Below are positions 37,240-57,652 of a DNA stretch of 64,000 bases, in pieces; the first letter of the stretch is position 1; each line of letters begins with the position of its first letter. This DNA comes from an uncultured Clostridia bacterium (GTDB lineage Bacteria > Bacillota > Clostridia > Christensenellales > UBA1242). The translations under genes and the position numbers were made by a program. Location of the stretch: assembly GCA_944377305.1 (NCBI GenBank), contig CALWEL010000003.1, positions 26,902 to 90,901 of the forward strand, written 5' to 3'. Below the pieces are notes generated by a model, which saw only the letters and a program-made list of their open reading frames with translations, searched no databases and was not told the DNA's origin.

Positions 37240-38517
37240 ATGAGTAGACAAATAGGGAAAATTGAAAGAAAGTCCAGAAATGGATCAATTGGTTCGTTTT
37301 TCTTTGGTGCGCTGATAGGCTTGCTATTTGGCATAGCGGCGATAGCGGGAATCGTGGCATTATTTTATTATAAAGCGTCACCAAACTGGATAAATGACAA
37401 ATTTCACACCGAGTTAGATTTAGGCAATGATGATTTGAACAATCTGACATTGAATAAATTTGTCACGCACGCAATCAATTTGTCACAAAATATTGATAGT
37501 TATACTCTGAATGATTTGCAATCAGATTTTGATATAGAGATCAAAGACGAGATAGTGGGCATAAATATAACTGATTTGAAAGATGTTCCTTTACCAAAAC
37601 TTGTGGACGCACTTCAAAATAAACTATCAAATATCAGTGCAGAAGAATTAAAAAACGTGTTGGATTTATCTGAAATAGAAAGTATATTAAATGAGACCAA
37701 TACTTACTATTTCAATTTGGCAGATGGAAAACTATATGAGGATATAGATTATAATGAAGAAGTAAAGTTTGAATACACGATTGATTTAGCAATTTCTAAG
37801 GTTATCATTAAAGGTCAAGAATTTTCGCTTTCGTCAAATCAAGTAGAGGTAGCAATACGTTATATTCCATTGAGTGATGCGATAGGCTCAATCAGTTCAA
37901 ATATGAATTCCAACATCACAGTTGGAGAATTGAGAGACGAATATCATATCAAGTTGCCAACTTTCTTTGCATATATTCCAGATGAAACTCCAATTGGCGA
38001 ATTGGAGCAGGCAATTGATGAATTGACGGTAGCACAACTTTTAAGTTTTACAGATCAAGATAGCAATGGACTCTATGAAGATAAAGATGGCAATGAAGTT
38101 GGCAAATTAATGGACACAATTGCGGACTTCAGAATTAATGAATTGGCTGAAAGCATAAAATATTTGAAGTTATCTGACGTATTCGCTAGTGAAGAATTGG
38201 AATTGGGAGCATTGTCTTTAATTGATCCTGACGAGATGATTACAAATTTGCCAAACGCTTTGTCATTGGCTCTTGAAGAGGCAACAATGGATGAACTTAT
38301 AAATGCAGAGTTGATTGAACCATCGGATAGATATTACTCAGCTACAGGAGGAATTTTGGATGATGGTACTGGTATTAAAGATAAATATATTAATGTGGGA
38401 GATATAGAAACACCTGAATATAAACAAGTGAAAAATTTAAAATTAGCAGATTTTAGTAGTCTATTAGAAATATTGGAAAACAATGGAATATTATTAGATC
38501 AGATTCCGACCACATAG
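37240..38517 (+). CDS. membrane-anchored acidic protein of unknown function
   Basis: 425 aa. N-terminal TM FFFGALIGLLFGIAAIAGIVALFYY. Acidic helical ectodomain with recurring (S/T)-x-x-(D/E)-L helix starts. Confidence 0.6.
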   Translation: MSRQIGKIERKSRNGSIGSFFFGALIGLLFGIAAIAGIVALFYYKASPNWINDKFHTELDLGNDDLNNLTLNKFVTHAINLSQNIDSYTLNDLQSDFDIEIKDEIVGINITDLKDVPLPKLVDALQNKLSNISAEELKNVLDLSEIESILNETNTYYFNLADGKLYEDIDYNEEVKFEYTIDLAISKVIIKGQEFSLSSNQVEVAIRYIPLSDAIGSISSNMNSNITVGELRDEYHIKLPTFFAYIPDETPIGELEQAIDELTVAQLLSFTDQDSNGLYEDKDGNEVGKLMDTIADFRINELAESIKYLKLSDVFASEELELGALSLIDPDEMITNLPNALSLALEEATMDELINAELIEPSDRYYSATGGILDDGTGIKDKYINVGDIETPEYKQVKNLKLADFSSLLEILENNGILLDQIPTT

Positions 38518-38855: not shown

Positions 38856-39189
38856 TATATTGCATTCAGCATAAGCAGGGTGCCGAACCAATAGGTTCGT
38901 TAGGACAATTTATATCTTAATAGGTACAATGGTAAGAAATAAGTAAGCAATTACTTATAGGCAATGTTCAATGAACAAAATTCTTATCAATTCCAAGTTT
39001 TTTAGACAACGAAATTAGCCAAGCGAATGAGCAAGGTAATTCATAAAAAAACTTGTTTCTAATACTCGATATGTTAATTGATAACATGGGGTCCCCGCGA
39101 AACGAATGTTTCGAAGGGGAAACAAAAATTTCGAGTGTTAGGCGCAGTTTAAAATTTTCAATTTTAAACAAGGAAAAACGAGTAAATTT

Positions 39190-40742
<1,553 letters not shown>

Positions 40743-42589: not shown

Positions 42590-43309
42590 TCACATATTTT
42601 TTTGCATTTCGCGTTTTAATTTATGTAGGATTTTTTTTTCTAGTCTGGAGATATAACTCTGCGAGATGTTCATATAATCGGCGACTTCTTTTTGCGTCAG
42701 TTCCTTGTGACCATTCAGTCCGTAACGCATACTCATTATTAATTTTTCTCTATCATTGAGTTTGCTGATTGATTGAATTAAATAAGATTTTTGATCTTTC
42801 AATTCAATTTCGTCGTAGGCAATCTTGCTATCAGGGATAATCTCTCCTAAAGTTAAATTATTCCCCTCATCGTCACTGGAAAGAGTATCATCTAGGCTTA
42901 GGTCATTGATACTTTTATTTGCTTTCCTTAGATACATCAAAATTTCGTTTTCAATACAACGACTCGCATAAGTGGCGAGTTTAATATTTTTGTCCGGCTT
43001 ATAACTATCCACTGCTTTGATCAGTCCTATGGAACCTACAGAAACCAAATCTTGCATATCCAATTTTTTGTTTTCAAATCTCTTTGCAATATACATCACG
43101 AGACGAAGGTTATGCTCAATCAATTCAGATTTTGCACTAATGTCATTATGCTCTTGAAATGCCATCACGAGTTCGGATTCGCGTTCGCTATCTAGAGGCT
43201 CGGGCAAACTCTCAGAACTGAAGATATAGTTCACAATGCTTTCGACATTTAAAAAATCGTGTCTAAATAAACGAGTGAAGAAATTTTTGATAATTCTAAA
43301 TAATTTCAT
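42590..43309 (-). CDS. sigE: sporulation sigma factor SigE (pro-sigma-E)
   Basis: 239 aa. Pro-sequence followed by YIFSSESLPEPL, LIEHNLRLVMYIAKRFEN, IGLIKAVDSY, KLATYASRCIENEILMYLRK. Lies directly downstream of spoIIGA. Confidence 0.9.
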   Translation of the reverse strand: MKLFRIIKNFFTRLFRHDFLNVESIVNYIFSSESLPEPLDSERESELVMAFQEHNDISAKSELIEHNLRLVMYIAKRFENKKLDMQDLVSVGSIGLIKAVDSYKPDKNIKLATYASRCIENEILMYLRKANKSINDLSLDDTLSSDDEGNNLTLGEIIPDSKIAYDEIELKDQKSYLIQSISKLNDREKLIMSMRYGLNGHKELTQKEVADYMNISQSYISRLEKKILHKLKREMQKNM

Positions 43310-43319
43310 ATATTCTCCT

Positions 43320-44141
43320 TTATAAATTGAGTGGGGATAATAAGGCTTGATAGTTCAAATCCTTAAATTTATTTGGGCTGACCGCTATGTATTGGTTGAA
43401 ATAAGTTTTTCTTTCCTTATTGATCTTGATTTCAATTTTGTCAATCTTGAATAGTTTCAAATTGTTGCTACCGTTGACTGTATTTGCGACTATCTCGTCA
43501 TTTTTTGATAGATAGAAGTCAATCAAATTTTTATTAGAGAGTTTCAAATATGATTTCAAATCGACAATTATCACGGGTTCGCCATTGATATTCAAAAAAT
43601 TTCCCGTGTCAAGATATGCTTGGAGATCGATTTTTTTCTCTTTTGAATATAGAGTGATTGGGTAAATTAAATTATTCGTTTTGAGTTTAAATTTTATATA
43701 TTTTGCAATAAATTCATAGATATAAGTGACAACTATTGCAAGTGTTGTAATTAGTTCCAATGAAAATTTGCTCGCGCTAATGATTCCGAACGAAGTATAA
43801 TAATTTGTGCTAGTCAGATTCATTATCGCTCCACCCAAAGCGTAAGTATATAAGAACAATAGAATGATACTGAATATAAATTGTTTTTTGCTCTGTTTGA
43901 GCGCTATGACTAGTGTGATAATGGCACAGGCAAATTTTAGAAAATTTAATATAATTTGATTGGACAAAAAGATAGCAGAGATCACACTAAAACCTGCACC
44001 CACAATTGAGGCGCTGATCAGTCTAAAAAAATTTGTTTTTGATTTCAAAGTAATTACGACTAACCGTAATAAGCAAAAATTGATCAAAACATTTTGTAGT
44101 AAAAAACTTTCTATATAAATTGTCATACTTGAAGTATACAT
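43320..44141 (-). CDS. spoIIGA: sigma-E processing aspartic peptidase SpoIIGA
   Basis: 273 aa. Five or so N-terminal TM segments. C-terminal domain carries AYLDTGNFL (DTGN active-site motif). Confidence 0.85.
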   Translation of the reverse strand: MYTSSMTIYIESFLLQNVLINFCLLRLVVITLKSKTNFFRLISASIVGAGFSVISAIFLSNQIILNFLKFACAIITLVIALKQSKKQFIFSIILLFLYTYALGGAIMNLTSTNYYTSFGIISASKFSLELITTLAIVVTYIYEFIAKYIKFKLKTNNLIYPITLYSKEKKIDLQAYLDTGNFLNINGEPVIIVDLKSYLKLSNKNLIDFYLSKNDEIVANTVNGSNNLKLFKIDKIEIKINKERKTYFNQYIAVSPNKFKDLNYQALLSPLNL

Positions 44142-44274
44142 TAAAAATATTTTTCTTCTATGAAAAAAAATTTGTAATGTTTCAATATTTGTGTCGATTA
44201 ATAAGATTTTTTAGCAAATTTCTTAGTTTTGGGATAAAAATATTTGAATAAGACACAATATAATCGAGGTGAAT

Positions 44275-45045
44275 ATGGCAAGACGAGTTTATATTTGTGG
44301 AATAGATACTAGCACTTTGCCCAAAATTACGCGTGAAGAGAGCGAACAAATATTGAAAAAAATTAAGGCGGGAGACGAACAGGCAAAAGATTATTACATC
44401 TATTGCAATATGCGTCTTGTTTTGTCTGTGGCGCAGAGATTTGTATCCTGCAAGGAAAATATGGATGATATTTTTCAAGTTGGATGTGTGGGATTGTTGA
44501 AGGCAATTGATAATTTTGATATCTCATTAAATGTTCAGTTTTCCACCTATGCCGTACCTATGATTATAGGCGAGATCAAGCGATTTTTGCGTGATTCAAG
44601 CGTAATGAGGGTGAGCAGAAGCATTAGAGATACCGCATATATGGTACTTAAGAGCAAGGAAAAATTGCAAACGGGTAGATCGGATGAAGTGGGTCTAGAG
44701 GAAGTCGCAAATGATCTAAATATAACGATAAGAGAAGTCTACGATGCGATAGACGCAATATCAACTCCGCTCTCACTAGATGAATCTTTCTTCAACGAAG
44801 GGGATGAAGAAATGCGCTTGGATGAACATATTGCCGACACTGAGCATTCAGTCGAAAAGTGGATAGATCACACTGATTTGCTTGATGCAATCAAACAATT
44901 GGATGATCGTGAACGCGAAATTTTAAATTTGAGGTATTTTATTGGCAAAACACAAATGGAAGTGAGTGATAGTGTAGGAATATCACAAGCACAAGTAAGT
45001 AGATTAGAAAAAAACGCACTTGCGCATATCAAAAAAAGCTTATAG
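44275..45045 (+). CDS. sigG: sporulation sigma factor SigG
   Basis: VYICGIDTSTLPKITREE, NMRLVLSVAQRF, DDIFQVGCVGLLKAIDNFD, VQFSTYAVPMIIGEIKRFLRD, MRVSRSIRD. Close to B. subtilis SigG as I recall it. ATG 44275 after GAGGTG. Confidence 0.9.
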   Translation: MARRVYICGIDTSTLPKITREESEQILKKIKAGDEQAKDYYIYCNMRLVLSVAQRFVSCKENMDDIFQVGCVGLLKAIDNFDISLNVQFSTYAVPMIIGEIKRFLRDSSVMRVSRSIRDTAYMVLKSKEKLQTGRSDEVGLEEVANDLNITIREVYDAIDAISTPLSLDESFFNEGDEEMRLDEHIADTEHSVEKWIDHTDLLDAIKQLDDREREILNLRYFIGKTQMEVSDSVGISQAQVSRLEKNALAHIKKSL

Positions 45046-46369: not shown

Positions 46370-47005
46370 ATGAGTTATGAAATGTTGAACAACAACAAAG
46401 TTTACTTGCAAGGTGAGGTGGCGGATATACCGAAATATAATCATACAGTTTTGGATGAAGATTTTTATTCATTCAATCTGATTGTGCCGAGATTAAGTGG
46501 ACAAAATGACATACTTCCGATTACCATTTCATCCAAATTAATTGCTGAAAATCAATTAGAAATAGGAGATAAAATAGCCTTGCGAGGACAATTTAGAAGC
46601 TATAACAAGCTAGATCAGGGCAAAAGTAAATTGATATTATCGGTATTCTGTAGAGAACTGTGCGAATGGGATAACGACGCAAATTCAAATGTTATAGAAT
46701 TGAGCGGATATATATGCAAATCACCTATCTATAGGACGACACCATTTTCGCGTGAGATATGCGATATTCTTCTTGCGGTGAATAGAAATTATGACAAATC
46801 TGATTATATTCCGTGTATTGCGTGGGGAAGAAATGCTCAATTTACAAATAAATTACCTGTAGGTACAAAATTAGAGCTTGAAGGACGTATTCAGAGCAGA
46901 GAATACAACAAACATTATGATGGAGAGGATATTCCAGTAGTAAAAATAGCTTATGAAGTATCTATAATAAAATTAGCCATAGCCGAAGATAAGACCGCCT
47001 TATAG
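46370..47005 (+). CDS. tandem OB-fold SSB-like protein
   Basis: 211 aa with RBS AAGGAG. Two OB-like halves: VYLQGEV...IALRGQFRSYN and IELSGYI...IAWGRNAQFTNKLPVGTKLELEGRIQSREY. No acidic C-terminal SSB tail. Confidence 0.55.
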   Translation: MSYEMLNNNKVYLQGEVADIPKYNHTVLDEDFYSFNLIVPRLSGQNDILPITISSKLIAENQLEIGDKIALRGQFRSYNKLDQGKSKLILSVFCRELCEWDNDANSNVIELSGYICKSPIYRTTPFSREICDILLAVNRNYDKSDYIPCIAWGRNAQFTNKLPVGTKLELEGRIQSREYNKHYDGEDIPVVKIAYEVSIIKLAIAEDKTAL

Positions 47006-47187
47006 CGAGTCTTTTTTTATTATTAAGAGCAGTATTTATTTACAAAATAAAACATACGTTCGATTAATTTGACTTATTTTATCGAAAATTCCGTCAATTT
47101 AATGCTGTTTTTTGTAAAAAAGTGGCGTATATGCTTGACTTTTCGACAAATTGTAGGATATACTTCTTTTTGTTAGGGGTGGATATA

Positions 47188-47676
47188 ATGATTGATATTT
47201 ATGATAGTGAAGCGATTGTTAAAATCTATCGAATGTTGGCTAAAAGATGCAATGCAATAGATAGATATATCAACAATTACGCATTTTATTTTGGACCAAG
47301 TACATCAGATTATGGTTCTTTGGATGTATGTAATAATATTATAGACTTGATTGAACGAAAAAATCAACTGATTAACTTAAAAGTTATAGTAGACAATGCA
47401 ATAAAATCTTTAAAAGTTGAAGATAAAAAAATACTTTATGTAAAAATGAATTATTCAATATCAATGTCTGAACTTTGTGGCATTTTAGATTTGAAGGAGC
47501 GTACAGCATTCAGACATATTGAGCGTGCTTTTTATAATATGACAGAAGCGTTGAATAAATCAAAATATATTGAAAAGTTAGTACGCATTTTAGACTCTGA
47601 AGTTTGGATAGCTGATATTAGACAGGAGGTTAAGGAAAGACGTTTGTCATTTAAAATGAAGGCTTTGAGTTTATAA
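47188..47676 (+). CDS. sigma-70 region-4-like HTH regulator (phage late-activator-like)
   Basis: 162 aa from ATG 47188 with RBS AGGGGTGGA. ILYVKMNYSISMSELCGILDLKERTAFRHIERAFYNM resembles region 4 / RinA-ArpU-type regulators. Sits just before the packaging genes. Confidence 0.4.
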   Translation: MIDIYDSEAIVKIYRMLAKRCNAIDRYINNYAFYFGPSTSDYGSLDVCNNIIDLIERKNQLINLKVIVDNAIKSLKVEDKKILYVKMNYSISMSELCGILDLKERTAFRHIERAFYNMTEALNKSKYIEKLVRILDSEVWIADIRQEVKERRLSFKMKALSL

Positions 47677-47789
47677 AATATTATGTAGCAAATTTATTTG
47701 AGTTTTTAAGTTATAATTCTTTTATCATTTTATAGTTAAATTTTTATTACTGAATCTTTATCTACTTGATTTTCTAATTTAAACATAAA

Positions 47790-48557
47790 TTAATAATCTT
47801 GAATCTCTTTGGTTTGCTTTTTGATTTCTTTATTAAATAATTTTCCGCCTTTTAATATCATAAATACGAAAATGATCGCAGGGATAGTAAGAATAGCAAT
47901 CACTATCGCTGTTGTTTTGTTTTCTACAGGAAGTGAAGTGATCTCTTCTGTGATATCAAAATTAGGTTCGGAAGTATAACTCACTTCTTCGTGATTGAGC
48001 GGTATAGCATTCGGATCAAATTCGTCACAGAAATCACTATATACATAGCCATAATAATCTTGATCGGCAGAATATTTGCAATAATACCAAAGATTTGTAC
48101 GTCCGTCTACGAGTTCTTCACCTTGAATCGTGCCGTAATATGTAAGATTTCTCGAATACAGAGGAATGTATACCACTTGAGTTGAAGTTCCGCTAGTAGT
48201 AGTGGGTTCGCTTCTCATATCTCTGCTTTGCTCAGAATATACACGAAAATTTTGATTTTCCAAATATGGTGTCATAGGTTTACCTACAATTGTTTGAACG
48301 GCATCTTTCTTCACATATCCAGTAAAGGACAAATAATTTACTTTATAAAATGTACTATTGCTACTTTCAATAAGCTCTACAAAATATGTACGGGGCAGAG
48401 AAAAATATATGTTAGCATATTCGTTGACTTCGATTGGTGACTTATAAAGATAGACATCATCATACATTATGCGTGCATAATATGTGTCAAATGTGCTTGC
48501 TGAGACATACAAAAGAGAATTTTCCAATGAAAATAATATAATCAATAATAAAATCAT
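47790..48557 (-). CDS. secreted, C-terminally anchored protein with two SH3b-like domains
   Basis: Signal peptide. Two SH3b-like segments (YARIMYDDVYLYKSP...FTGYVKKDAV and FRVYSEQSRDMRSEP...YYGYVYSDF). C-terminal TM AIVIAILTIPAIIFVFMIL. Confidence 0.55.
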   Translation of the reverse strand: MILLLIILFSLENSLLYVSASTFDTYYARIMYDDVYLYKSPIEVNEYANIYFSLPRTYFVELIESSNSTFYKVNYLSFTGYVKKDAVQTIVGKPMTPYLENQNFRVYSEQSRDMRSEPTTTSGTSTQVVYIPLYSRNLTYYGTIQGEELVDGRTNLWYYCKYSADQDYYGYVYSDFCDEFDPNAIPLNHEEVSYTSEPNFDITEEITSLPVENKTTAIVIAILTIPAIIFVFMILKGGKLFNKEIKKQTKEIQDY

Positions 48558-48635
48558 ATTTTGATTTTATCATAAAAATTAAGAAATATTTTGACAACTT
48601 TAGGCTAATATGAGCGAGTTTTAGTGTAAATTATC

Positions 48636-50063
48636 GTGAAAATGGAATTGATTGAAAAAATTTTAAAAATAGAAAGTATTCAAAGAAAAAGGAAAGAAAA
48701 AAACAAACTTAATCAATATAACACAGGTGAAAAAATTCATAAAAAACAACTTCTATTTCACCAATCAGAGAAGAAAAATAGATGGGTGTTTGGTGGCAAT
48801 AGGTCTGGGAAAACTGAGTGCGGAGCAGTGGAAGTTTTGTATTTTGCAAGAGGATGTCATCCATTCAGGGAAATTAAAGGCGCAACATCGGGCTGGGTGG
48901 TCAGCTTATCAACTCAAGTACAACGTGATGTAGCTCAAAACAAAATTTTACATTACCTTAACCCAGATTGGATAGAAGACATAGTAATGTTGAGCGGTAG
49001 GAAAGATAATTATGCAAATGGAATCGTAGACTATATATTGATAAAGAATGTGTTTGGTACTCTTAGCAAAATTGGATTCAAGAGTTGTGATCAGGGAAGA
49101 GAGAAGTTTCAAGGGACGAGTCTAGATTACGTATGGTTTGACGAAGAGCCTCCTTATGACATTTATTCTGAATGTAGGATGCGTGTACTAGATAAAGATG
49201 GAGATATATTCGCTACGATGACTCCATTGAAAGGAATGACCTTTGTCTACGATGAAATTTATCTTAATAAATATAATGATCCAAATATTTGGTACGAATT
49301 TATGCAGTGGGATGACAACCCATTTATTAGTGAAAGTGCAAAAAATGCAATGAAACAAAGTTTGTCCGAACAGGAATTGAAATCTAGACAATTTGGTGAA
49401 TTTCTAGATGTGGGCGGAAGAGTATATCCAGAATTTGATGAAAACGTCAATGTGATTGAGCCTTTCCAAATTCCATACGAATGGCAAGACAAATTATCAA
49501 TAGATCCAGGATTGAAAAATCCGTTGTCGTGTCATTGGTATGCAGTAGATTATGATGGAAATGTTTATGTGGTGGCTGAACACTATGAAAGCGGACGAGA
49601 TATAGGATATCATAGCGAAGTAATACATAGGATCAGTGATGAAATGCATTGGCACAGAAACTCAAATGGGATGATTGAAGCATTGATTGACAGTGCAGCG
49701 AATCAGACTACACTTGCTTCAATTAGAAGCGTAGCGGACCTATTTTATGATTACAATATACTTGTCAATACGAATGTGAATAAAGATGTATTTTCTGGTA
49801 TACAGAGAGTGAAATCCTATTTGAAGAATAGTTTAGGTGAGAGCAAATTATTCATATTCAATACTTGCAAGAATATGATTCGAGAGATGAAAGCATATCG
49901 ATGGGGGAATGGTGACAACCCTGTCAAAGTAGATGATCATAGTTTGGATGAATTGCGCTACTATATAATGTCGCGCCCAGAGAACAAACGTCCAAAAGAG
50001 GAGTTGAGTTTAATACAAAAAGAAAAAGAGAGATTGATACGCTCGTTGAAGCGAAGAAGATAG
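48636..50063 (+). CDS. terL: phage terminase large subunit
   Basis: Walker A-like WVFGGNRSGKTECG, Walker B YVWFDEEP. C-terminal nuclease-like acidic motifs (KLSIDPG, LIDSAANQ, VDDHSLDELRY). No obvious RBS. Confidence 0.85.
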   Translation: MKMELIEKILKIESIQRKRKEKNKLNQYNTGEKIHKKQLLFHQSEKKNRWVFGGNRSGKTECGAVEVLYFARGCHPFREIKGATSGWVVSLSTQVQRDVAQNKILHYLNPDWIEDIVMLSGRKDNYANGIVDYILIKNVFGTLSKIGFKSCDQGREKFQGTSLDYVWFDEEPPYDIYSECRMRVLDKDGDIFATMTPLKGMTFVYDEIYLNKYNDPNIWYEFMQWDDNPFISESAKNAMKQSLSEQELKSRQFGEFLDVGGRVYPEFDENVNVIEPFQIPYEWQDKLSIDPGLKNPLSCHWYAVDYDGNVYVVAEHYESGRDIGYHSEVIHRISDEMHWHRNSNGMIEALIDSAANQTTLASIRSVADLFYDYNILVNTNVNKDVFSGIQRVKSYLKNSLGESKLFIFNTCKNMIREMKAYRWGNGDNPVKVDDHSLDELRYYIMSRPENKRPKEELSLIQKEKERLIRSLKRRR

Positions 50064-50170
50064 GAGGTCGATGTGATATAAAAACAAATTATATTGACGA
50101 AACAACACTGAAAGCACTCAAATCTTGTATTATAGGAAGTGCGACAACTGAAACTACTTGTGAATATGTT

Positions 50171-50410
50171 TTGGATAGCGAAACAAATGAGATGAAATTG
50201 GTCAAGAAAAAGGTCAATGAAAAATCACTTCCGCCAAATGCGGATTTAATAAAAATAATTTTTCAGCAAATAAGAGATGAGCAAAACAAAGAACTTGATT
50301 ATGATAGATTGACAGATGAAGAATTGGAAAATGAAAGGCAACGTTTGTTAAAGGAATTGAAGGAGATGGAAAATGAAAGTAGAAAAAGCAAAAGTTCGAA
50401 TAAAGTGTGA
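50171..50410 (+). CDS. small charged protein; possible C-terminal remnant of a small-terminase-like gene
   Basis: First canonical start is TTG 50171 or ATG 50192, but the frame is open back to 49952. The C-terminus DEELENERQRLLKELKEMENE is coiled-coil-like. Confidence 0.3.
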   Translation: MDSETNEMKLVKKKVNEKSLPPNADLIKIIFQQIRDEQNKELDYDRLTDEELENERQRLLKELKEMENESRKSKSSNKV

Positions 50411-50585
50411 CGCGAGTGGATGCAACAATCTTAGTGATTACGCGATAGTGAATAAAAAATTTGTGTTTGATGGTAGCGTCTATCTTTGTGAAAGTTGTAT
50501 GAAGTCTTTATATAAAGAAATCGGCAAATTTACCATACCAAAAAATTTAAAACCGCTTTATAAAAAGGGAGGAAACAATGAGTAA
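50373..50585 (+). CDS. small zinc-ribbon protein
   Basis: 70 aa with RBS AAGGAG. CDASGC...CESC. 8-nt overlap with the portal start. Confidence 0.45.
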   Translation: MKVEKAKVRIKCDASGCNNLSDYAIVNKKFVFDGSVYLCESCMKSLYKEIGKFTIPKNLKPLYKKGGNNE

Positions 50586-52461
50586 AACTAATCAAAAATT
50601 AGTCGAAGAGGTGAGAAAAGATTATATCAAAAGACGCGAAGCACGTAGGAGTTTGGAAGCACAATGGCAGTTGAATATCAATTTTATGATAGGTAATCAA
50701 TATAGTTATATAGCATCAAACAATTCGATAAGAGAGGATGAAAAAGAGTATTTTTGGCAAGAAAAAGAAGTATTTAATCATATCGCGCCTATAGTTGAAA
50801 CACGTATATCAAAAATATCTAGCAATACACCTAGCGTTACGGTAGTACCAGCTAGTACGGATGAATCGGATATTGAAAGTGCAAAACTTAGCAAAGAGAT
50901 TTTAAACTCGGTTGCCAATAGGTTAAATTTGACCGATTTAGAAAAAACTGCTACCACTTGGAGTGAAATTTGTGGAACAGCCTTTTATAAAATAGTATGG
51001 AACACGAATACGGGAAGGATGGTGGCTACTGATGAGTTGGGCAATGCAATAAGAGAGGGAGATGTGCAAGTAGAGGTGGTATCACCATTTGAAATATTTC
51101 CAGACAACCTCGCTTGTGAAAGAATGGAAGATGTGAAGAGCATCATACACGCACGTGCGGTCGAGATTGACGAGGTTCGTTCACAATGGGGTGTGGACGT
51201 AGAGAGCGAGAATGTATATGCATTCACTCTGGATAGTTTATCTAATAATCTAGGTGGACTGGGATATAATGCGCACATAAATAAAGTAGCAAATATTGAA
51301 TTGACAAATCATTGTGTAGTGATAGAGCGCTATATTAGACCAACAAAAGATTTTCCGCTCGGTAGGCTTACTATTGTAGCGGGAGACAAACTGCTGTTTG
51401 ATGGTGATCTGCCTTATATTAATGATGAACTGAACAATCGAACTTTTCCATTTGTGAAACAGATATCAAACTATATACCGGGCAGTTTCTTTGGCGTAAG
51501 CGTGGTAGATAGGTTAATTCCTTTGCAACGAGCCTACAATGCTGTACGTAATCGCAAACACGAATATTTCAATAGATCAGTAATGAATGTGCTTGCAGTG
51601 GAAGACGGCAGTATTGATACCGATGCATTGGAGATGGAAGGTCTATCTCCAGGTAAGGTACTTGTATATAGGCAGGGCAGTAAAATCCCTGAAATTATGC
51701 AAAATCCTAATATCAATCTCAACTTTGACGAAGAGGAGGAACGATTATTATCCGAATTCAAAACCGTGTCAGGAGTCAGTGATATGATGACAGATAGTTA
51801 TGCTAATTATACAAATATGTCAGGTGTGGCACTGGAATTGTTGGCAGAGCAAGATATGACGCGTCTAGCCACCGCGATCGACTCTACGAAATTGGCAGTG
51901 AAAATTTTGGCAAAATTTATATTGAGATTGTATAAGCAGTTTGCTGTAGTTCCGCGTCTATTGAAAATTACTGGTGAGACAGGTGATGTACAGATGTATT
52001 ATTGGGACCAAAATGAGATATGTAGTGACGATGTCGTATTTGATGCATCCACAGACACAATGGATAGTTTAGGTCAAAAACGTACGATGCTATTAGATCT
52101 GATTAAGGAGGGATTGATGTATGATGAAGATGGAAAATTTTCTCAAAGTACACGAAAGAGATGCCTCGACTTATTGGGTTTCGGGATGTGGGAAAATGCG
52201 GTAGATATCAATTCACTTCAGATCAATCGAGCGAAAGAAGAAAATATCACTATATCAAATAATCAGGAATTAAAAATATTTCCTATTGATGATCATAAAA
52301 TACATATTGATGAACACACCGCTTACATATTGGGTGGAGAGATAAAGAAAAAAATAAATGGTCAAAAAATAATTGAAAAATTGTTAAAACACATTGAAGA
52401 ACATAAAAAATTATTGAAAATTTCTGAAAAAGAAGAAAATTTTGAACAAAAAGGAGAATAG
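50578..52461 (+). CDS. phage portal protein
   Basis: 627-aa ORF in the canonical position after the terminase. Size and acidic C-terminus fit a portal. Call is by position and size. Confidence 0.75.
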   Translation: MSKTNQKLVEEVRKDYIKRREARRSLEAQWQLNINFMIGNQYSYIASNNSIREDEKEYFWQEKEVFNHIAPIVETRISKISSNTPSVTVVPASTDESDIESAKLSKEILNSVANRLNLTDLEKTATTWSEICGTAFYKIVWNTNTGRMVATDELGNAIREGDVQVEVVSPFEIFPDNLACERMEDVKSIIHARAVEIDEVRSQWGVDVESENVYAFTLDSLSNNLGGLGYNAHINKVANIELTNHCVVIERYIRPTKDFPLGRLTIVAGDKLLFDGDLPYINDELNNRTFPFVKQISNYIPGSFFGVSVVDRLIPLQRAYNAVRNRKHEYFNRSVMNVLAVEDGSIDTDALEMEGLSPGKVLVYRQGSKIPEIMQNPNINLNFDEEEERLLSEFKTVSGVSDMMTDSYANYTNMSGVALELLAEQDMTRLATAIDSTKLAVKILAKFILRLYKQFAVVPRLLKITGETGDVQMYYWDQNEICSDDVVFDASTDTMDSLGQKRTMLLDLIKEGLMYDEDGKFSQSTRKRCLDLLGFGMWENAVDINSLQINRAKEENITISNNQELKIFPIDDHKIHIDEHTAYILGGEIKKKINGQKIIEKLLKHIEEHKKLLKISEKEENFEQKGE

Positions 52462-52462
52462 G

Positions 52463-53023
52463 ATGGAAGATTTGGAACAACCAAAACAAGAAAATAGTTT
52501 AGGCTCCAATGAAAATTTTGGAAAATTCAAAGACGCGGAGAGTTTATTGAAGGCATACAATAGTCTCGAGGCAGAATTTACCAAAAGGAGTCAAAGGTTG
52601 GCAACTTTGGAGAGCGAAAATACTGCACGAGAGAAAGATGCCAGCAAGCGACTTGAAATTGAAAAGAGAGTGGACGAGTTTGCAACAAAATTTGATATAA
52701 TTAAACCTTTCAGTAGCGCGCTGAAAGAAAGCTTAATTCAAGATGAAAATTTAAACTTTGAAGATGAAGTTATGAAGATCATCACAAATAATTACAAACG
52801 AGCGCAAGATTATGTTTCAGATGATGAATTTTTGAACAACTATATTTATTCCAATAGTGAAATTAAGGATAAAATCATCAAAGACTATTTGAGTAAAATA
52901 CCTCAGAATTCACCAATACGCATTGATGCTGGCTCGAATTCGATTCCGCTTTCTCCACCCAATCGGCCAAGCACGATTCAAGAGGCTGGACGATTGGCAA
53001 AATCGATTATAAAACAAAAATAA
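52463..53023 (+). CDS. scaffolding-like protein
   Basis: 186 aa from ATG 52463 (RBS AAAGGAG). Charged and helical (SLEAEFTKRSQRLATLESENTAREKDASKRLEIEKR). Lies between the portal and the capsid gene. Confidence 0.5.
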   Translation: MEDLEQPKQENSLGSNENFGKFKDAESLLKAYNSLEAEFTKRSQRLATLESENTAREKDASKRLEIEKRVDEFATKFDIIKPFSSALKESLIQDENLNFEDEVMKIITNNYKRAQDYVSDDEFLNNYIYSNSEIKDKIIKDYLSKIPQNSPIRIDAGSNSIPLSPPNRPSTIQEAGRLAKSIIKQK

Positions 53024-53035
53024 ATAGGAGAAAAA

Positions 53036-54247
53036 ATGATAGATTTAACTACAGCGCAAAGCGCTTTGAAAGATGCGTATTTGGTTGCTGCTTGCAATCA
53101 ATTGAATACGAAAACAAATCCTCTGTTTGCAAAGATCAAACAATCTTCATCAGATGTCTATGGCAGACAAATTATCAAAGTAGCACCAGTTGGACTGAAT
53201 GGTGGAGTTGGAGCAGGTAGTGAAACTGGCAAACTACCTACGGCCAATGAAAACAATTATGTTCAGTTCAAGACTACATTAAAAAATCTCTATGGAACAA
53301 TTGAAATTAGCGACAAAGCAATTAGGGCAAGTAGCAACAATAGCGGAGCGTTCATAGATTTATTGAATGCAGAGATGGAAGGATTGTTGACCGCATCCAA
53401 ATTTAATCTTAGTCGTATGTTGTATGGCGATGGAACGGGGGCTGTCGGAACAGTCATTTCGTACGCTTCTGGTGTGGCAACAATGGATAGTGTGAAAAAT
53501 CTAATAGAGGGTATGGTAATTGATGTTTATTCGTCCACAGGTACGATCACATCAAATGTCGGACTAAGAATCGCGTATGTAGACAGAGTGAACAAGAAAG
53601 TAAGTTTCACCACCACCCCTGCAACTATGAATGCAAATGATGTGTTCTATGTACAAGGCAGTAAAGGGAATGAAATCACCGGGCTTGGCGCGATATTCAA
53701 CACGGCTGGCACTTTATATGGGCTAGATAGGACAAACAATCAATGGTTAAATCCATATATTAGTACTACTAGTCAAGAGGTTAGTGATTCAATACTCCAA
53801 AGTGCAGTAGATTTCTTGGAAGAAAATAGTGGATCTACAATTGATTTTATTACTTGCGGAGCGGGCGCAAAACGAGCATATCAGCAGTATCTTGCTTGTT
53901 ATAGGCGCAATATTGACGTCACAGTACTAGCTGGCGGATACAAGGCAATGACCTTCAATGGAATTCCTATTGTATCTGATAGATTTATTCCAGACGATAC
54001 AATATATCTTTTGGACACTAGCAAATTCACATTGCATCAGTTGTGTGATTGGGAATGGATTGAAGGAGAAGGAGGCAAGATCCTACGTCAAAAAGCTGGA
54101 TATCCTGCTTATACAGCAACTTTAGTAAAATACGCGGATTTGATCTGCGATTTACCAAGTGGGCAAGCCAAATTCACAAATATCAAATCTACTGTCACCA
54201 ATCCGTTTGCTAGCATCGTGGAGATGAACAGCAATAGCGAAACTTAA
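53036..54247 (+). CDS. major capsid protein (by position and size)
   Basis: 403 aa with RBS AGGAGA. Immediately follows the scaffold-like gene. Gly/Thr/Ala-rich composition differs from neighbouring genes. Confidence 0.65.
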   Translation: MIDLTTAQSALKDAYLVAACNQLNTKTNPLFAKIKQSSSDVYGRQIIKVAPVGLNGGVGAGSETGKLPTANENNYVQFKTTLKNLYGTIEISDKAIRASSNNSGAFIDLLNAEMEGLLTASKFNLSRMLYGDGTGAVGTVISYASGVATMDSVKNLIEGMVIDVYSSTGTITSNVGLRIAYVDRVNKKVSFTTTPATMNANDVFYVQGSKGNEITGLGAIFNTAGTLYGLDRTNNQWLNPYISTTSQEVSDSILQSAVDFLEENSGSTIDFITCGAGAKRAYQQYLACYRRNIDVTVLAGGYKAMTFNGIPIVSDRFIPDDTIYLLDTSKFTLHQLCDWEWIEGEGGKILRQKAGYPAYTATLVKYADLICDLPSGQAKFTNIKSTVTNPFASIVEMNSNSET

Positions 54248-54264
54248 AATATCAAAGGAGTGTT

Positions 54265-54591
54265 ATGAAAATCAAAATCAATAGTGATGTATATGGAATT
54301 GCAAAACGGATTAAATATATAGATAAGGATTATTATATTCTTTATAATACATCTACACGCGTTTTTGAACTTCATAATTCTTCACAAAGAGACAGTACAT
54401 ATTGTTTAACATTACCATACGATACACTAGATTTTCGTGTATTGGTATATACTTTTGAGAGTAGAAGTACAAATATTGATAAGATAGTAGAAAAAATTGA
54501 AAACGACAACAAATTAAGGGAGAACGCCGACACGAGAAGCGTTCTCTCTCAATTTAATGATACACTTGAAACAGAAATGAAAAGGAGTTAG
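54265..54591 (+). CDS. hypothetical phage protein
   Basis: 108 aa with RBS AAAGGAG. Confidence 0.45.
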   Translation: MKIKINSDVYGIAKRIKYIDKDYYILYNTSTRVFELHNSSQRDSTYCLTLPYDTLDFRVLVYTFESRSTNIDKIVEKIENDNKLRENADTRSVLSQFNDTLETEMKRS

Positions 54592-54592
54592 T

Positions 54593-55153
54593 ATGAAGAT
54601 ACTAGATATAATAAAAAATAGTGCAGAACTTTTAGGTTTAAATAATGAACGTGATCTATTGGATAATGCTACGACTTCAGCCGAAGAAAATTTACTTGAA
54701 AATTTGGAAATCAAAAAATTGTTTAATTTAATTAAATTTTCAATTCAAGAGTTGTGTACGCATTATATACCATTATTTACGAGTCAAGAAATCAGTACAA
54801 CGAATAAAAAATTTGCTTTGAGCAATTTGAATAATTTTATTCGTGTAAATAATGTGTATAAAGATGACAAGCCTATAAAATTTAAAATTATCAATAGAAA
54901 TCTAGAATTTTCTGAAAATGGTATTTATACTGTCAAGTACACCACATATCCCGCGGTCAATTCAATATTTGATGACATAGATTTTCTGGCTAATTTTGGC
55001 TTGGATGTTATCTGTTTTGGACTATGCGCTTATTATTGCCTAGCGAACGGAATGTTTCAAGATTTTGAATCATTTCATAATAGTTATATTTCAAAAGCTG
55101 AGAGTATAAAAGACTTAAGAATTTTTGAACTCCCCGCAAGGAGATGGGAATGA
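54593..55153 (+). CDS. hypothetical phage protein (head-completion/adaptor position)
   Basis: 186 aa with RBS AAAGGAG. Starts 1 nt after the preceding stop. Confidence 0.45.
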   Translation: MKILDIIKNSAELLGLNNERDLLDNATTSAEENLLENLEIKKLFNLIKFSIQELCTHYIPLFTSQEISTTNKKFALSNLNNFIRVNNVYKDDKPIKFKIINRNLEFSENGIYTVKYTTYPAVNSIFDDIDFLANFGLDVICFGLCAYYCLANGMFQDFESFHNSYISKAESIKDLRIFELPARRWE

Positions 55154-56574
55154 AAGAAAAAAAGCGCATAGAAATCGACACTTTCAATAATTTTAATTCA
55201 TCAAACAACATTTATACAGAGAAATTTTATAATTTTTTTCCATCAAATAAATTGTCTTCTTCTCAAGGTGTGGCAGTTGCGAAATTTCCAAAGATGTATA
55301 CCGATATGACAGAAGAAGAATTGGATATTGAAGATTTGGATATAAATTCGGTGTGCGGTGTCAGTTATTTCAAGATGTATTTCCCAGATAGTCAGAATAC
55401 TCAACATAGAATTTTGATCTATGGGGATGACAACAAAGTTTACATTAATCAACTTTTTAGTGGCTCATCTATGCTGTTATGGTTATTTAACCTGCAATTC
55501 AATAGTCCGCCAGTTAGTCTTTCGTATAAAACGGACGACACAGATTCAATTATTTTGACAAGCTCGGACAAAATGGTAGTTTGGCATACAAATTATTCAC
55601 CTTATGAAATTGAAAATGTGCCTATCATTACTAGTATGTGTATGAATGATGAAGTATTGTTTTGTACAATTAAAGATCCCGCATTCAAAATATGGTATGC
55701 AACGAATTTAGATGCTGAGAATGTTGGTCAAGTCAGTGCGGAGTCTGGATATATTTCACTCGAAGATGATTTGGGATATTCAAGAAAAATTTTGACATTC
55801 AATGAGGACATTTATGTATTTAGAGATTATGGTATATCAAAAATAAATTATATCAAAAATGATATATCTGTCAGCCAGATATATCTGTCAAATACAAAGA
55901 TTTATGCTGACACGGTTTCTATTTGTGGTAACGTAATTATGTTTATGACAAAGGATGGGATATATTCTTTCAATGGAGTGAAGGTCACAAAAACAGATGT
56001 AAATATTAAAACCCTCCTTCCATCTACAAATGAGCATACTACTGCGTCTTCATTGGGACAAAAATATTATTTAGCACTGCGCTTAAATTTTAATGATAAC
56101 AAAGAAATACTATGTGAAACTGGAGATTATGTAAATAACGCATTGGTAATAATTGACATTATAGATTATTCGTATGAAATCATACGTGGAGTAGATATAA
56201 AAAGTTTACTGCCTGTGAAAACGGAATTGTTTGAAAAAATGCTTGTCACTTTCAATACAATAAATAACTCACAATTGGGACAAATTGTAGAAACATCATC
56301 TTGCTTTGATACTAGTTTACCGAAATATTGGCAAAGTAGCAATTTGACAAACAATTTTAATACCAAATTGTTCACCAAACTGTCAATTCAAGCGAGTGAA
56401 AATGTCACGTTCAACCTGATATATGATGACAAAAACATTTCATTTTCTACTTATAAAGATGGATTGAACGAATTTTGTTTCAAAATATTGTGCAAACAAG
56501 TTAAATTGGAAATATCTTCCAATGAAACTAATGCAAGTGTAGATAAAGTCGTGCTAGATTATTATGAATATTGA
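55144..56574 (+). CDS. hypothetical 476-aa phage structural-position protein
   Basis: 10-nt overlap with the upstream ORF. Beta-rich sequence. No family recognised. Confidence 0.5.
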   Translation: MGMKEKKRIEIDTFNNFNSSNNIYTEKFYNFFPSNKLSSSQGVAVAKFPKMYTDMTEEELDIEDLDINSVCGVSYFKMYFPDSQNTQHRILIYGDDNKVYINQLFSGSSMLLWLFNLQFNSPPVSLSYKTDDTDSIILTSSDKMVVWHTNYSPYEIENVPIITSMCMNDEVLFCTIKDPAFKIWYATNLDAENVGQVSAESGYISLEDDLGYSRKILTFNEDIYVFRDYGISKINYIKNDISVSQIYLSNTKIYADTVSICGNVIMFMTKDGIYSFNGVKVTKTDVNIKTLLPSTNEHTTASSLGQKYYLALRLNFNDNKEILCETGDYVNNALVIIDIIDYSYEIIRGVDIKSLLPVKTELFEKMLVTFNTINNSQLGQIVETSSCFDTSLPKYWQSSNLTNNFNTKLFTKLSIQASENVTFNLIYDDKNISFSTYKDGLNEFCFKILCKQVKLEISSNETNASVDKVVLDYYEY

Positions 56575-56676
56575 TTTAAAAATATTAAGAAAATTGAATA
56601 TGTATTTTCAATATTTGTGCTCTGTAAAAAATTTTTTAGTTTTTGATGAAATATCAAAGATAGAAAAGGAGCAAAA

Positions 56677-57429
56677 ATGAATTGGAAAAAACGATTGACT
56701 AATTATAATTTTTGGATATCTATAGTCAGTGCAATTCTTCTCATTTTGCAAGCATTTGATATTAGTTTTGATATCGCTTACATAAATGAGATTGTCACTG
56801 CGGTACTAGGACTTTTGGTAGTAATAGGTATCATTAATGATCCAACGAAAACGAACAAAGATATTACATCATATTCGCAATCGGGGTCGGTAAATAAAGA
56901 GACAAAAACCGAGGAAAACACAATTGAAAATAATAAGACTCAATCAGAAACAGAAAATAGCAATGAAAAAAACATTGAACAGATCAATACAAATATAGAG
57001 ACAATTGAAAGTCCAAATATTGACATACCCACTCAAAAAGAAAATAAAAATTATATTCTTGATAGCGAAAATAATTATGAAGTTTTTGTAAATAAGATTT
57101 ATTCTGATTTGAATGAAATGAAGACAAATTTGGGAAAATTGTATGCAAATGCGGAAGGTCAAATTATTGAAAAAAATTTAAAAAACAAAGAAAATGATAA
57201 AGATATTCAAGAAAATTCAATCAAAAATGTAAAATATTTAGAAAATTCTAATAATTTGACTGAGAAAATTGAAAATTTTAGCAATAATGAAAATGATATA
57301 AAAAACAATGTGGACGAACAAATCAATGAAATAAATATTGAAAATGTAAATTCTTTTCCAGACGGCATTTTATCTGACAGTAATGAAAATTCAGATGTCC
57401 AAACTGCATTTAAAATAGTAAATGATTAA
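56677..57429 (+). CDS. holin-type (phi-LC3/Phage_holin_1-like) N-terminal domain fused to a long N/E/K-rich tail
   Basis: MNWKKRLTNYNFWISIVSAILLILQAF...VTAVLGLLVVIGIINDPT matches the start and NDPT end of that holin family as I recall it. About 185 aa of low-complexity sequence follows. RBS AAAGGAG. Confidence 0.6.
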   Translation: MNWKKRLTNYNFWISIVSAILLILQAFDISFDIAYINEIVTAVLGLLVVIGIINDPTKTNKDITSYSQSGSVNKETKTEENTIENNKTQSETENSNEKNIEQINTNIETIESPNIDIPTQKENKNYILDSENNYEVFVNKIYSDLNEMKTNLGKLYANAEGQIIEKNLKNKENDKDIQENSIKNVKYLENSNNLTEKIENFSNNENDIKNNVDEQINEINIENVNSFPDGILSDSNENSDVQTAFKIVND

Positions 57430-57544
57430 ATATATCTTAAATAAAAAGATATTAGACAAATTGTTTTATGAAAAATTTATTTTAATACCTAATCATATTT
57501 ATATTTACAATTGTAGGTAAAATTATAAGATCAATTTAATAGTT

Positions 57545-57574
57545 AAAAAAATGAGTCGTACGACTCATTTTTTA
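57545..57574. terminator. bidirectional intrinsic terminator
   Basis: aaaaaa-atgagtc-gtac-gactcat-tttttt. Serves the + strand island and the - strand tRNA. Confidence 0.75.
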
Positions 57575-57577
57575 TTT

Positions 57578-57652
57578 TGGCTGGGGTAGGTAGATTCGAA
57601 CTACCGAATGCTGGATTCAGAGACCAGAGCCTTACCGCTTGGCGATACCCCA
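57578..57652 (-). tRNA. tRNA-Gln (anticodon CUG)
   Basis: Minus strand: TGGGGTA TC GCCAAGCGGTAAGGC T CTGGT CTCTGAA TCCAG CATTC GGTAG TTCGAAT CTACC TACCCCA G CCA. Has a U1:A72 pair and an encoded CCA. The first 24 nt are identical to E. coli tRNA-Gln as I recall it. Confidence 0.9.

Follow-up and report, generated by a model that had tools for sequence, protein, structure and literature searches.

A host-fixed, podovirus-derived particle gene module in Christensenellales as a candidate gene transfer agent

A 64,000-nucleotide stretch of contig CALWEL010000003.1 (here the window), from an uncultured Clostridia bacterium of the Christensenellales, contains between 47.1 and 57.6 kb a compact block of phage-type genes, which is very probably a host-fixed, selected and podovirus-derived particle module. 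The module was fixed in the host chromosome and under purifying selection, and a function as a DNA-packaging and transfer agent of the gene transfer agent (GTA) kind is assigned to it with moderate confidence. The most likely source is a short-tailed (P22/SU10-like) phage, and a podovirus-derived, GTA-like “viriform” is the best reading of the block. Because it is inherited vertically and kept intact in dozens of species, a GTA-like particle factory is most likely, neither a decaying nor a mobile prophage.

Distribution, inheritance and selection

The major capsid protein of the module had more than 6,400 database homologues, many of them 80–97% identical and some located on contigs of up to 487 kb. 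In a scan of one genome per species, the protein was present in 79 species-level genomes, all of them metagenome-assembled genomes (MAGs) of the Christensenellales type and many with contigs of 100–800 kb. The names of the carrier MAGs (“Candidatus Onthoplasma”, Christensenella, Christensenellaceae, Clostridia bacterium) all correspond to Christensenellales. The genes for the large terminase subunit (TerL), portal, scaffold, capsid and tail nozzle were collinear in 59 loci, the remainder being short contigs, and all 12 genes of the module were collinear in 39 loci, 38 of which had pdaB and ssb upstream and 32 also sigG. The sig184-to-holin span was 9.3–10.7 kb across loci, and orthologues reached at least 85% of full length in 62 of 63 cases for TerL, 70 of 72 for the portal, and all cases for the capsid protein (75/75) and the nozzle (70/70).

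Approximate ratios of nonsynonymous to synonymous substitution rates (dN/dS), computed against the five closest species, were low in the head and packaging genes (TerL 0.02–0.03, portal 0.013–0.023, capsid 0.017–0.035, scaffold 0.06–0.10) and in the nozzle (0.03–0.06), with values of 0.07–0.17 for the head-to-tail adaptor, 0.16–0.35 for the holin, 0.16–0.23 for a conserved 108-aa open reading frame (ORF) and 0.04–0.07 for a divergently transcribed exported protein. The corresponding values in the flank were 0.013–0.02 (sigG) and 0.04–0.05 (pdaB), and dN taken by itself was of similar size in island and flank. When loci were compared in pairs, the protein distances of TerL, portal and capsid followed those of sigG, pdaB and ssb with a Mantel r of 0.889, which none of 2000 permutations reached, and the slope of 0.74 showed a lower rate of evolution in the island than in the flank. 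A GTA or viriform is expected to descend vertically with its host and to keep its structural genes under purifying selection, and both features were found.

The check for plain prophage decay that had been proposed in the initial annotation of this DNA, i.e. broken or missing orthologues in close relatives together with dN/dS near 1, was run and gave the opposite result, with dN/dS of 0.01–0.06 in the core genes and orthologues nearly all of full length. Its argument that the long intact ORFs reflected selection is borne out by the orthologue lengths, the dN/dS range of the four core genes (TerL, portal, capsid, nozzle) and the Mantel correlation. In IMG/VR, 11 related contigs were classed as viral; among the matches listed (L085–L093, 5–16 kb), the seven checked (L085–L091) were the same chromosomal fragments, recognised as such because the host flanks pdaB and ssb were present. 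Both plain decay and mobility were rejected on account of the collinear fixed locus, the full-length orthologues, the low dN/dS, the co-divergence and the host-flanked “viral” contigs.

Similarity to phages was low, the nearest proteins among 50,697 phage genomes being at most 29% (capsid) and 30% (TerL) identical. An exhaustive HMMER search resulted in 2,952 capsid-protein representatives at E≤1e-3, the contexts of which were sampled. The same stripped module was found elsewhere between genes for lipoate ligase and NTP transferase/RNase J, together with a BhlA-type holin (L080–L082), and near gyrB/gyrA in “Ca. Coproplasma” (L083). Contigs of ~16 kb with a 35%-identical capsid protein, considered as complete small phages, were chromosome fragments with the stripped module between housekeeping genes. 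Bona fide phage-like contigs (L096, L097) carried anti-defence and HNH genes, larger portals, many additional tail genes and scaffolds of 320–354 aa, as compared to 193 aa in the window. At equal capsid identity (34–42%), TerL was 60–63% identical to that of the window in the stripped modules versus 23–26% in the phage contigs, which suggests that the stripped modules are one lineage apart from the sampled extant phages.

Among the ORFs scanned at 42.5–61.7 kb, there were no matches to families of integrase, recombinase, repressor, replication, prohead protease, tape measure, tube, sheath, baseplate, fibre or endolysin proteins; apart from replication, the initial annotation had noted the same absences between about 45 and 61 kb. 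The particle genes were chromosome-resident with zero matches to integration, excision or replication families, as looked for in a GTA or viriform. In the comparison with a functional prophage, lysogeny control, replication and an endolysin-containing lysis cassette were not found, the holin being the only lysis gene. Direct repeats of the attachment-site (att) type flanking the block were not found, only weak, AT-rich repeats at chance level, whereby att sites or a duplication of the adjoining tRNA-Gln gene were ruled out. The tRNA gene was also discarded as an integration scar, no repeat of the tRNA end being found upstream, and a plasmid origin was dismissed with no plasmid match.

Gene content, regulation and chromosomal setting

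All ORFs named in the initial annotation exist where it had placed them (Table 1), and the tight packing it described at 50373-56574 was confirmed, neighbouring ORFs overlapping by 8, 20 and 10 nt or lying 12, 17 and 1 nt apart. Its calls of TerL, the portal, a 403-aa protein in capsid position, a sigma-region-4-like regulator, a holin-type gene, and a terminator followed by tRNA-Gln were all upheld.

Table 1. Coordinates of the module genes, conserved motifs and downstream boundary in the window.
Feature	Position	Strand	Basis
Conserved sigma-A-type promoter of regulator gene	47135..47164	+	TTGACT-18 nt-TATACT
Small sigma-like regulator, 162 aa	47188..47676	+	PHROG sigma factor/regulator 2e-5
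Divergent exported protein	47790..48557	-	Signal peptide, SH3b-like domain(s), C-terminal membrane anchor
Conserved motif GAGTTTTAGTGTAAATT	48616..48632	+	10 nt upstream of TerL ATG, between rev255 and TerL
TerL, large terminase	48642..50063	+	Terminase_6N 3e-12, phrog_2 3e-32
Short TerS-like protein, about 100-110 aa	50078..50410	+	phrog_309 matches among orthologues
Zn-ribbon protein, 70 aa, CxxC...CxxC	50373..50585	+	Sequence
Portal, 627 aa, P22/SU10 type	50578..52461	+	P22_portal 7e-27, SU10_portal 1e-8, phrog_156 2e-38
Putative scaffolding protein, short, 193 aa	52442..53023	+	Portal-capsid position; coiled-coil, charged sequence
Major capsid protein, 403 aa, podovirus HK97-fold family NF033394	53036..54247	+	phrog_14242 5e-57, capsid_maj_Podo 2e-80
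Conserved 108-aa ORF	54265..54591	+	68/68 orthologues full length
Predicted head-to-tail adaptor, 186 aa	54593..55153	+	AlphaFold2 and Foldseek
Predicted tail nozzle/hub, 476 aa, P22 gp10 / T7 gp12 class	55144..56574	+	Beta-propeller plus beta-sandwich
Holin	56677..57429	+	Pfam Phage_holin_1 1e-8, phrog_297 2e-16, TIGR01598 1e-10
Hairpin terminator closing operon	57546..57573		A-run and T-run
tRNA-Gln(ctg)	57578..57652	-	Host gene marking downstream boundary

TerL had the Walker A motif GGNRSGKT at residues 53–60, and alignment of the intergenic regions placed its conserved start at ATG 48642. The next ORF was annotated as similar to the small terminase subunit (TerS), where the initial annotation had seen no canonical small terminase: three of 28 orthologues matched phrog_309 “terminase small subunit” (best E=1e-7) and one matched phrog_23444. 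The ORF is about 100 aa long in most species and aligns with the single small gene between TerL and portal of distant relatives. Its orthologue alignment extends upstream of TTG 50171; in the window and in seven related loci (L001–L005, L010, L011) no ATG, GTG or TTG occurs in the frame until about residue 32, yet the frame is conserved at the protein level upstream, and in more distant species the gene has a normal ATG. A conserved Shine-Dalgarno sequence, GGAGGT, overlaps the TAG stop codon of TerL and is followed after 9 nt by an in-frame ATA (50078), the probable non-canonical start codon. Initiation may be non-canonical, possibly attenuated, or a form of translational coupling. An out-of-frame ATG-TGA was observed between the GGAGGT and the in-frame ATA (window 50061-50095).

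The Zn-ribbon ORF was full length in 60 of 60 loci and specific to Onthoplasma/CAG-917-like clades, being absent from the modules beside lipoate ligase (L080) and gyrB/gyrA (L083). The scaffold, assigned tentatively from position and composition, was conserved in 74 loci. The capsid protein matched nothing in NCBIfam at E≤0.1 but NF033394 (capsid_maj_Podo), and a profile search of PDB sequences with it was uninformative. Neither a profile search of PDB sequences nor a PHROG scan gave an informative match for the 108-aa ORF, for which a role in head completion or in the neck is a guess from its position.

The initial annotation had reported no tail genes, a statement revised here on the basis of predicted structures for the last two ORFs before the holin. 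Structure prediction, with an alignment built from database homologues, was needed for the 186-aa ORF because the profile search of PDB sequences was uninformative. The AlphaFold2 model of this ORF (predicted local distance difference test, pLDDT, 88.8) matched the KHP30 tail chain in Foldseek (E=1e-6, template modelling (TM) score 0.66), as well as adaptors of LME-1, Pa223, crAss001, SU10, N4 and T7 (gp11). The model of the 476-aa ORF (pLDDT 92.4, predicted TM score 0.91) matched the PDB structures of Pa223 (E=2e-18, TM 0.72), VP1 (TM 0.72), P22 gp10 (TM 0.58), SU10, GP4 and T7 gp12, and BFVD entries titled “P22 Gp10”. By these models, the 186-aa ORF is an adaptor and the 476-aa ORF a nozzle. 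With portal, adaptor and nozzle encoded, the module therefore specifies a minimal short tail; of the parts of a P22/SU10-like podovirus tail machine these three were present, and no plug or needle and no tailspikes or fibres were identified in the cluster or in the 64-kb window.

The holin consists of an N-terminal Phage_holin_1 domain with two hydrophobic helices, followed by a poorly conserved low-complexity tail. In other lineages, a BhlA/UviB-type holin occupies the same position, and since the families differ, a holin is evidently required, no particular one. A 754-aa database protein (P0224), which stands for a cluster of 89 sequences, has nozzle and Phage_holin_1 domain in one chain; this is either a genuine fusion of the two or an artefact of gene calling or assembly that recurs. 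Extra genes were observed in or after the module of some lineages, i.e. a 758-aa ORF between TerL and the small genes (L056–L060, e.g. L056 4623-6899) and ORFs of 165–334 aa directly after the nozzle (296 aa in L056, 13720-14610; 334 aa in L062, 13570-14574; 165 aa in L083, 13080-13577). The extra ORFs of L056, L062 and L083 gave no fibre, lysin or other family matches; the extra ORFs of these other lineages could be candidates for a plug, a fibre or a receptor-binding protein.

The regulator gene starts at ATG 47188 according to the orthologue alignment. Among 28 orthologues, Sigma70_r4_2 was matched by 23 (best 3e-10), Sigma70_ECF by four and DUF1492 by four, and a profile search of PDB matched region 4 of SigW. 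The product appears to be a sigma-70 region 4 protein, possibly a divergent sigma factor of the extracytoplasmic function (ECF) type or a late-gene activator. Promoters were retained only when supported by cross-species conservation; a sigma-70 promoter scan over the island was rejected as evidence, its 87 sites versus 75 expected being no better than chance in AT-rich DNA. In the promoter of the regulator, the blocks TTGACTTT and TATA.T were at least 80% conserved across 51 species, and its spacer includes a perfect Spo0A-box 7-mer, TTCGACA, at 47142-47148. Such 7-mers (TGTCGAA/TTCGACA) occurred at 6.6 per kb upstream of the regulator versus 0.16 per kb across the loci. The proximal box had a fixed position in the spacer in 28 of the 51 species, distal boxes were found about 60 nt further upstream in 17, and several species without the proximal box carried a distal one. 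As the boxes turn over between positions, selection on the Spo0A motif itself, beyond inherited sequence, is suggested. From the 0A-box consensus, which we take from the Bacillus and Clostridium literature to be TGNCGAA, Spo0A may be expected to bind at 47142-47148.

Upstream of TerL, alignment of 53 intergenic regions resulted in the motif GAGTTTTAGTGTAAATT, the sole match of which in the 64-kb window was the TerL-upstream site; a second co-regulated locus, sought with the motif across the window, was not found. The motif may serve as a late promoter or operator and is a candidate target of the sigma-like regulator. The TerL ATG has no preceding Shine-Dalgarno sequence, and its mRNA may be nearly leaderless. 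The gene for the divergent exported protein (rev255) had SH3_3 matches in 12 of 30 orthologues (best 4e-5) and adjoins TerL also where the flanks differ (L056–L060, L064, L079, L083); being present with the module even under different flanks, it is probably part of the system.

The chromosome in the window is low in GC (about 31%), and its genes include GroEL, LeuRS, trigger factor, ClpX and a lone 16S rRNA gene. Upstream of the block is a sporulation neighbourhood, with spoIIGA and sigE on the minus strand, followed on the plus strand by sigG, a Zn-ribbon membrane protein, a PdaB-like deacetylase and a two-OB-fold single-stranded DNA-binding protein (SSB). In the window, spoIIGA/sigE is divergent from sigG (42590-45045), unlike in Bacillus, where spoIIGA, sigE and sigG are co-directional. 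The sporulation genes are present although the lineage is generally regarded as non-sporulating or uncultured. The SSB (46370-47005, plus strand; 211 aa, NCBIfam PRK05813 1e-80) adjoins the module upstream and is syntenic in more than 40 species.

Downstream, the operon is closed by a terminator that is bidirectional, since both an A-run and a T-run are present, and the block is followed by tRNA-Gln, a GT8 glycosyltransferase, a cardiolipin-synthase-like phospholipase D and a uracil-DNA glycosylase. In related species, tRNA-Gln follows the holin in either orientation, other tRNAs being located there in L042 and L047. In the closest relative (L001, capsid protein 97% identical), a 1,205-aa BspA-type leucine-rich-repeat surface protein is inserted between the holin and tRNA-Gln (L001 14591-18208); it is absent from the window, so the downstream module edge is a variable spot. 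Elsewhere in the window, the 16S rRNA gene is complete (39187-40741, plus strand), with no 23S or 5S gene in the 64 kb and ordinary protein-coding ORFs as the next genes, and it looks like an unlinked rRNA operon. A 3,659-aa ORF (16906-27885, plus strand) gave zero Pfam matches, and ORFs of 1,093 aa (5091-8372, minus strand) and 425 aa (37240-38517) gave zero Pfam or PHROG matches; none of these three large ORFs of the window matched phage tail proteins.

Comparison with known systems

FpGTA of Faecalibacterium prausnitzii, described in Nat Commun 2026 (PMC12946183), was the first podovirus-like GTA to be reported from a gut Firmicute. Its operon I of 10.5 kb has ten ORFs, encoding a TerS without DNA-binding domain, TerL, portal, scaffold, capsid, hypothetical proteins and a nozzle, and a second operon about 125 kb away encodes fibres, a receptor-binding protein, holin and endolysin (PMC12946183). 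The particles are roughly 40 nm, without visible tails, and contain 8.4–8.9 kb of host DNA (PMC12946183). In the same study, Christensenellaceae MAGs had GTA-like packaging, the modal reads being about 4.1 and 6.3 kb long (supplementary table), the genes being unidentified (PMC12946183).

The module in the window resembles FpGTA in having about ten genes in about 10 kb on a Clostridia chromosome of a gut anaerobe, in the order of TerL, portal, small gene, capsid, two small genes, nozzle and end-of-operon protein, in a TerS-like protein without obvious DNA-binding domain, in its podovirus-type parts, and in a main operon without fibres or endolysin. The architecture of the FpGTA family, i.e. 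TerL, portal, capsid and podovirus nozzle within about 10 kb, was found. The two differ in that the gene between portal and capsid is annotated as Prp-like in FpGTA and appears to encode a coiled-coil scaffold here, in that the holin is in the main operon and the TerS-like gene follows TerL here, and in the host order (Oscillospirales versus Christensenellales); moreover, the present cluster is known from its genes.

For a long time, GTAs were believed to occur almost exclusively in Alphaproteobacteria. With RcGTA and other alphaproteobacterial GTAs the module shares host fixation, vertical inheritance and purifying selection and, as proposed here, accessory genes at other loci and release by lysis; a host master response regulator is also common to both, CtrA for RcGTA and Spo0A in our proposal. 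The TerS of RcGTA likewise lacks a DNA-binding domain, a point for which the FpGTA paper reportedly cites Sherlock et al. 2019. RcGTA is unlike the module in being siphovirus-like, with tape measure, tube, head spikes and unrelated protein families, in place of a podovirus adaptor-nozzle tail in a Gram-positive host.

Podoviruses of the P22, SU10, Pa223 and VP1 kind have in common with the module a P22/SU10-type portal, a protease-less scaffold, an HK97-fold podovirus capsid, and, by predicted structure, an adaptor and a gp10-like nozzle, whereas their needle or plug, tailspike or fibre, ejection, replication, lysogeny and endolysin families were unmatched here. As compared to related true phages, the scaffold is about half as long, and no known phage is more than 30% identical in sequence. 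PBSX of Bacillus is likewise a phage-derived particle encoded in a Firmicute chromosome and released by lysis (proposed for the module); its late genes are, as proposed for the module, under a small sigma-like positive factor, Xpf. In contrast to the module, PBSX is myovirus-like with a contractile tail, about 28 kb and own endolysins, and is a killing particle. No other descriptions of this cluster were found in the literature.

Proposed working, alternatives and implications

In the working proposed for the GTA-like module, the sigma-A promoter with its Spo0A-box motifs would drive the small sigma-like regulator, which in turn would switch on the TerL-to-holin operon; a cascade from Spo0A through the regulator to the operon is presumed from the motifs. 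Capsid protein and scaffold would assemble on the portal, and the heads would be filled by TerL with its shortened TerS-like partner, perhaps also with the Zn-ribbon protein. The resulting particles would be small, DNA-filled and built for the host, the portal being closed by adaptor and nozzle as a stub tail, and they would be set free from a lysing subpopulation by the holin and a muralytic enzyme from another locus. Receptor-binding fibres, if any, would be encoded at another locus, as in operon II of FpGTA. Packaging of random host DNA receives indirect support from the TerS-like protein of about 100 aa, and by analogy from the packaging seen in Christensenellaceae MAGs. The short scaffold (193 versus 320–354 aa in phage relatives) is only suggestive as a sign of limited head capacity. 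The module appears GTA-like on every criterion that can be tested by sequence, with packaging of random host DNA, sub-genomic capacity and delivery lying outside those criteria. The initial annotation had named a domesticated tailless or GTA-like system among its interpretations; the GTA-like part stands as the best functional reading, given that the module is inherited vertically at a fixed locus, lacks mobility genes and has the FpGTA architecture, whereas “tailless” was wrong by the predicted structures.

Several points weigh against a GTA-like function or limit the evidence for it. The cluster is known from genes alone, particle production, packaged DNA and transfer being deduced from them, and the property that defines a GTA, a head too small for its own genes, is not readable from sequence. 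Fibres or receptor-binding proteins, a plug or needle for the tail, ejection proteins and an endolysin were all looked for and not found in the cluster or in the 64-kb window, so competence for delivery can only be presumed. The dN/dS ratios are approximate because dS was saturated (about 0.4–2.9). The carrier MAGs are draft genomes, and the distribution counts refer to carriers, as distinct from a clade-wide survey of presence and absence. Finally, the FpGTA capsid (RCH50849.1) is named as of the N4-gp56 family and the present one as capsid_maj_Podo NF033394, a comparison by family name only; since the capsid families differ, the cluster was not filed as an FpGTA homologue.

The next most likely reading, though rather unlikely, is that the domesticated particle has been selected for a role other than transfer, such as programmed lysis that frees DNA for biofilm or as nutrient, killing or interference, a decoy that competes with phages at the packaging or assembly stage, or a task of the mother cell connected with sporulation. 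Constraint and vertical inheritance would suit any function beneficial to the host, the locus has no receptor-binding or ejection proteins, and a holin is always kept though its family differs between lineages. The Spo0A-box motifs and the sporulation genes spoIIGA, sigE, sigG and pdaB nearby also speak for such a role, but these neighbours are missing around modules at other sites (L080, L083). Furthermore, the intact TerL with its Walker A motif, portal, adaptor and nozzle imply that DNA is packaged and retained, which would be needless for lysis alone, and packaging of the GTA kind is on record for related families (PMC12946183).

A capsid-forming satellite borrowing helper-phage tails, similar to the capsid-forming phage-inducible chromosomal islands (cf-PICIs), or another self-packaging mobile element, was suggested in the initial annotation and is improbable on the present evidence. 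Like a cf-PICI, the block sits in the chromosome with capsid and packaging genes of its own and without long-tail genes, a tRNA gene adjoins it, and IMG/VR classes the 11 related contigs as viral; the contigs checked, however, bear the host flanks pdaB and ssb. Integrase with att sites, primase-replicase and AlpA-type regulator, the marks of a cf-PICI, were not found, repressor families were unmatched, and the sole regulator was the sigma-region-4 protein. Moreover, the module is immobile between sites, occupying one chromosomal position in 38 species and co-diverging with its flanks, and with its own adaptor and nozzle as a podovirus stub it would need no borrowed siphovirus tail from a helper.

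That the block belongs to a complete, still infectious small podovirus prophage, with the other genes elsewhere after rearrangement, is very improbable. Portal, adaptor, nozzle and capsid form a coherent podovirus core, but dozens of species have one and the same gene order and host flanks, the abutting genes on both sides are host housekeeping or sporulation genes, divergence follows the host, and the related modules of other lineages are flanked by housekeeping genes (gyrB/gyrA, RNase J). The initial annotation had also raised a compact podovirus-like remnant, of which the podovirus part is retained, with the 476-aa protein as predicted nozzle and the 186-aa protein as predicted adaptor, and the word remnant is dropped in view of the strong purifying selection in dozens of species. 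A functionless, decaying prophage kept by chance has the slimmest prospect of all, as replication, lysogeny, fibre and lysin functions are missing but orthologues are full length in nearly all of the 79 species, dN/dS for TerL, portal, capsid and nozzle is as low as for sigG, and promoters and intergenic motifs are conserved.

Read as GTA-like, the cluster would be a second podovirus-derived system of this kind, with a different capsid family and in at least 79 species of Christensenellales, an abundant order linked to host health, largely uncultured and almost without genetics. It would offer a minimal parts list, about nine genes appearing to be enough for a DNA-packaging particle, and is a candidate gene set for the unexplained GTA-like packaging in Christensenellaceae. 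For virus-detection pipelines, it means that these chromosomal fragments are mislabelled as viral contigs. Through a cascade from Spo0A boxes via a sigma-like factor to the late operon, horizontal gene transfer would be coupled to cell-fate control in Clostridia. More speculatively, one ancient podovirus domestication may have given rise to a Christensenellales GTA independent of FpGTA, gated by Spo0A through a dedicated sigma-like factor and constituting the missing gene set behind the 4–6 kb Christensenellaceae packaging in human faecal virus-like particles. If true, gene transfer by lysing siblings would be wired into the stationary-phase and sporulation decision.

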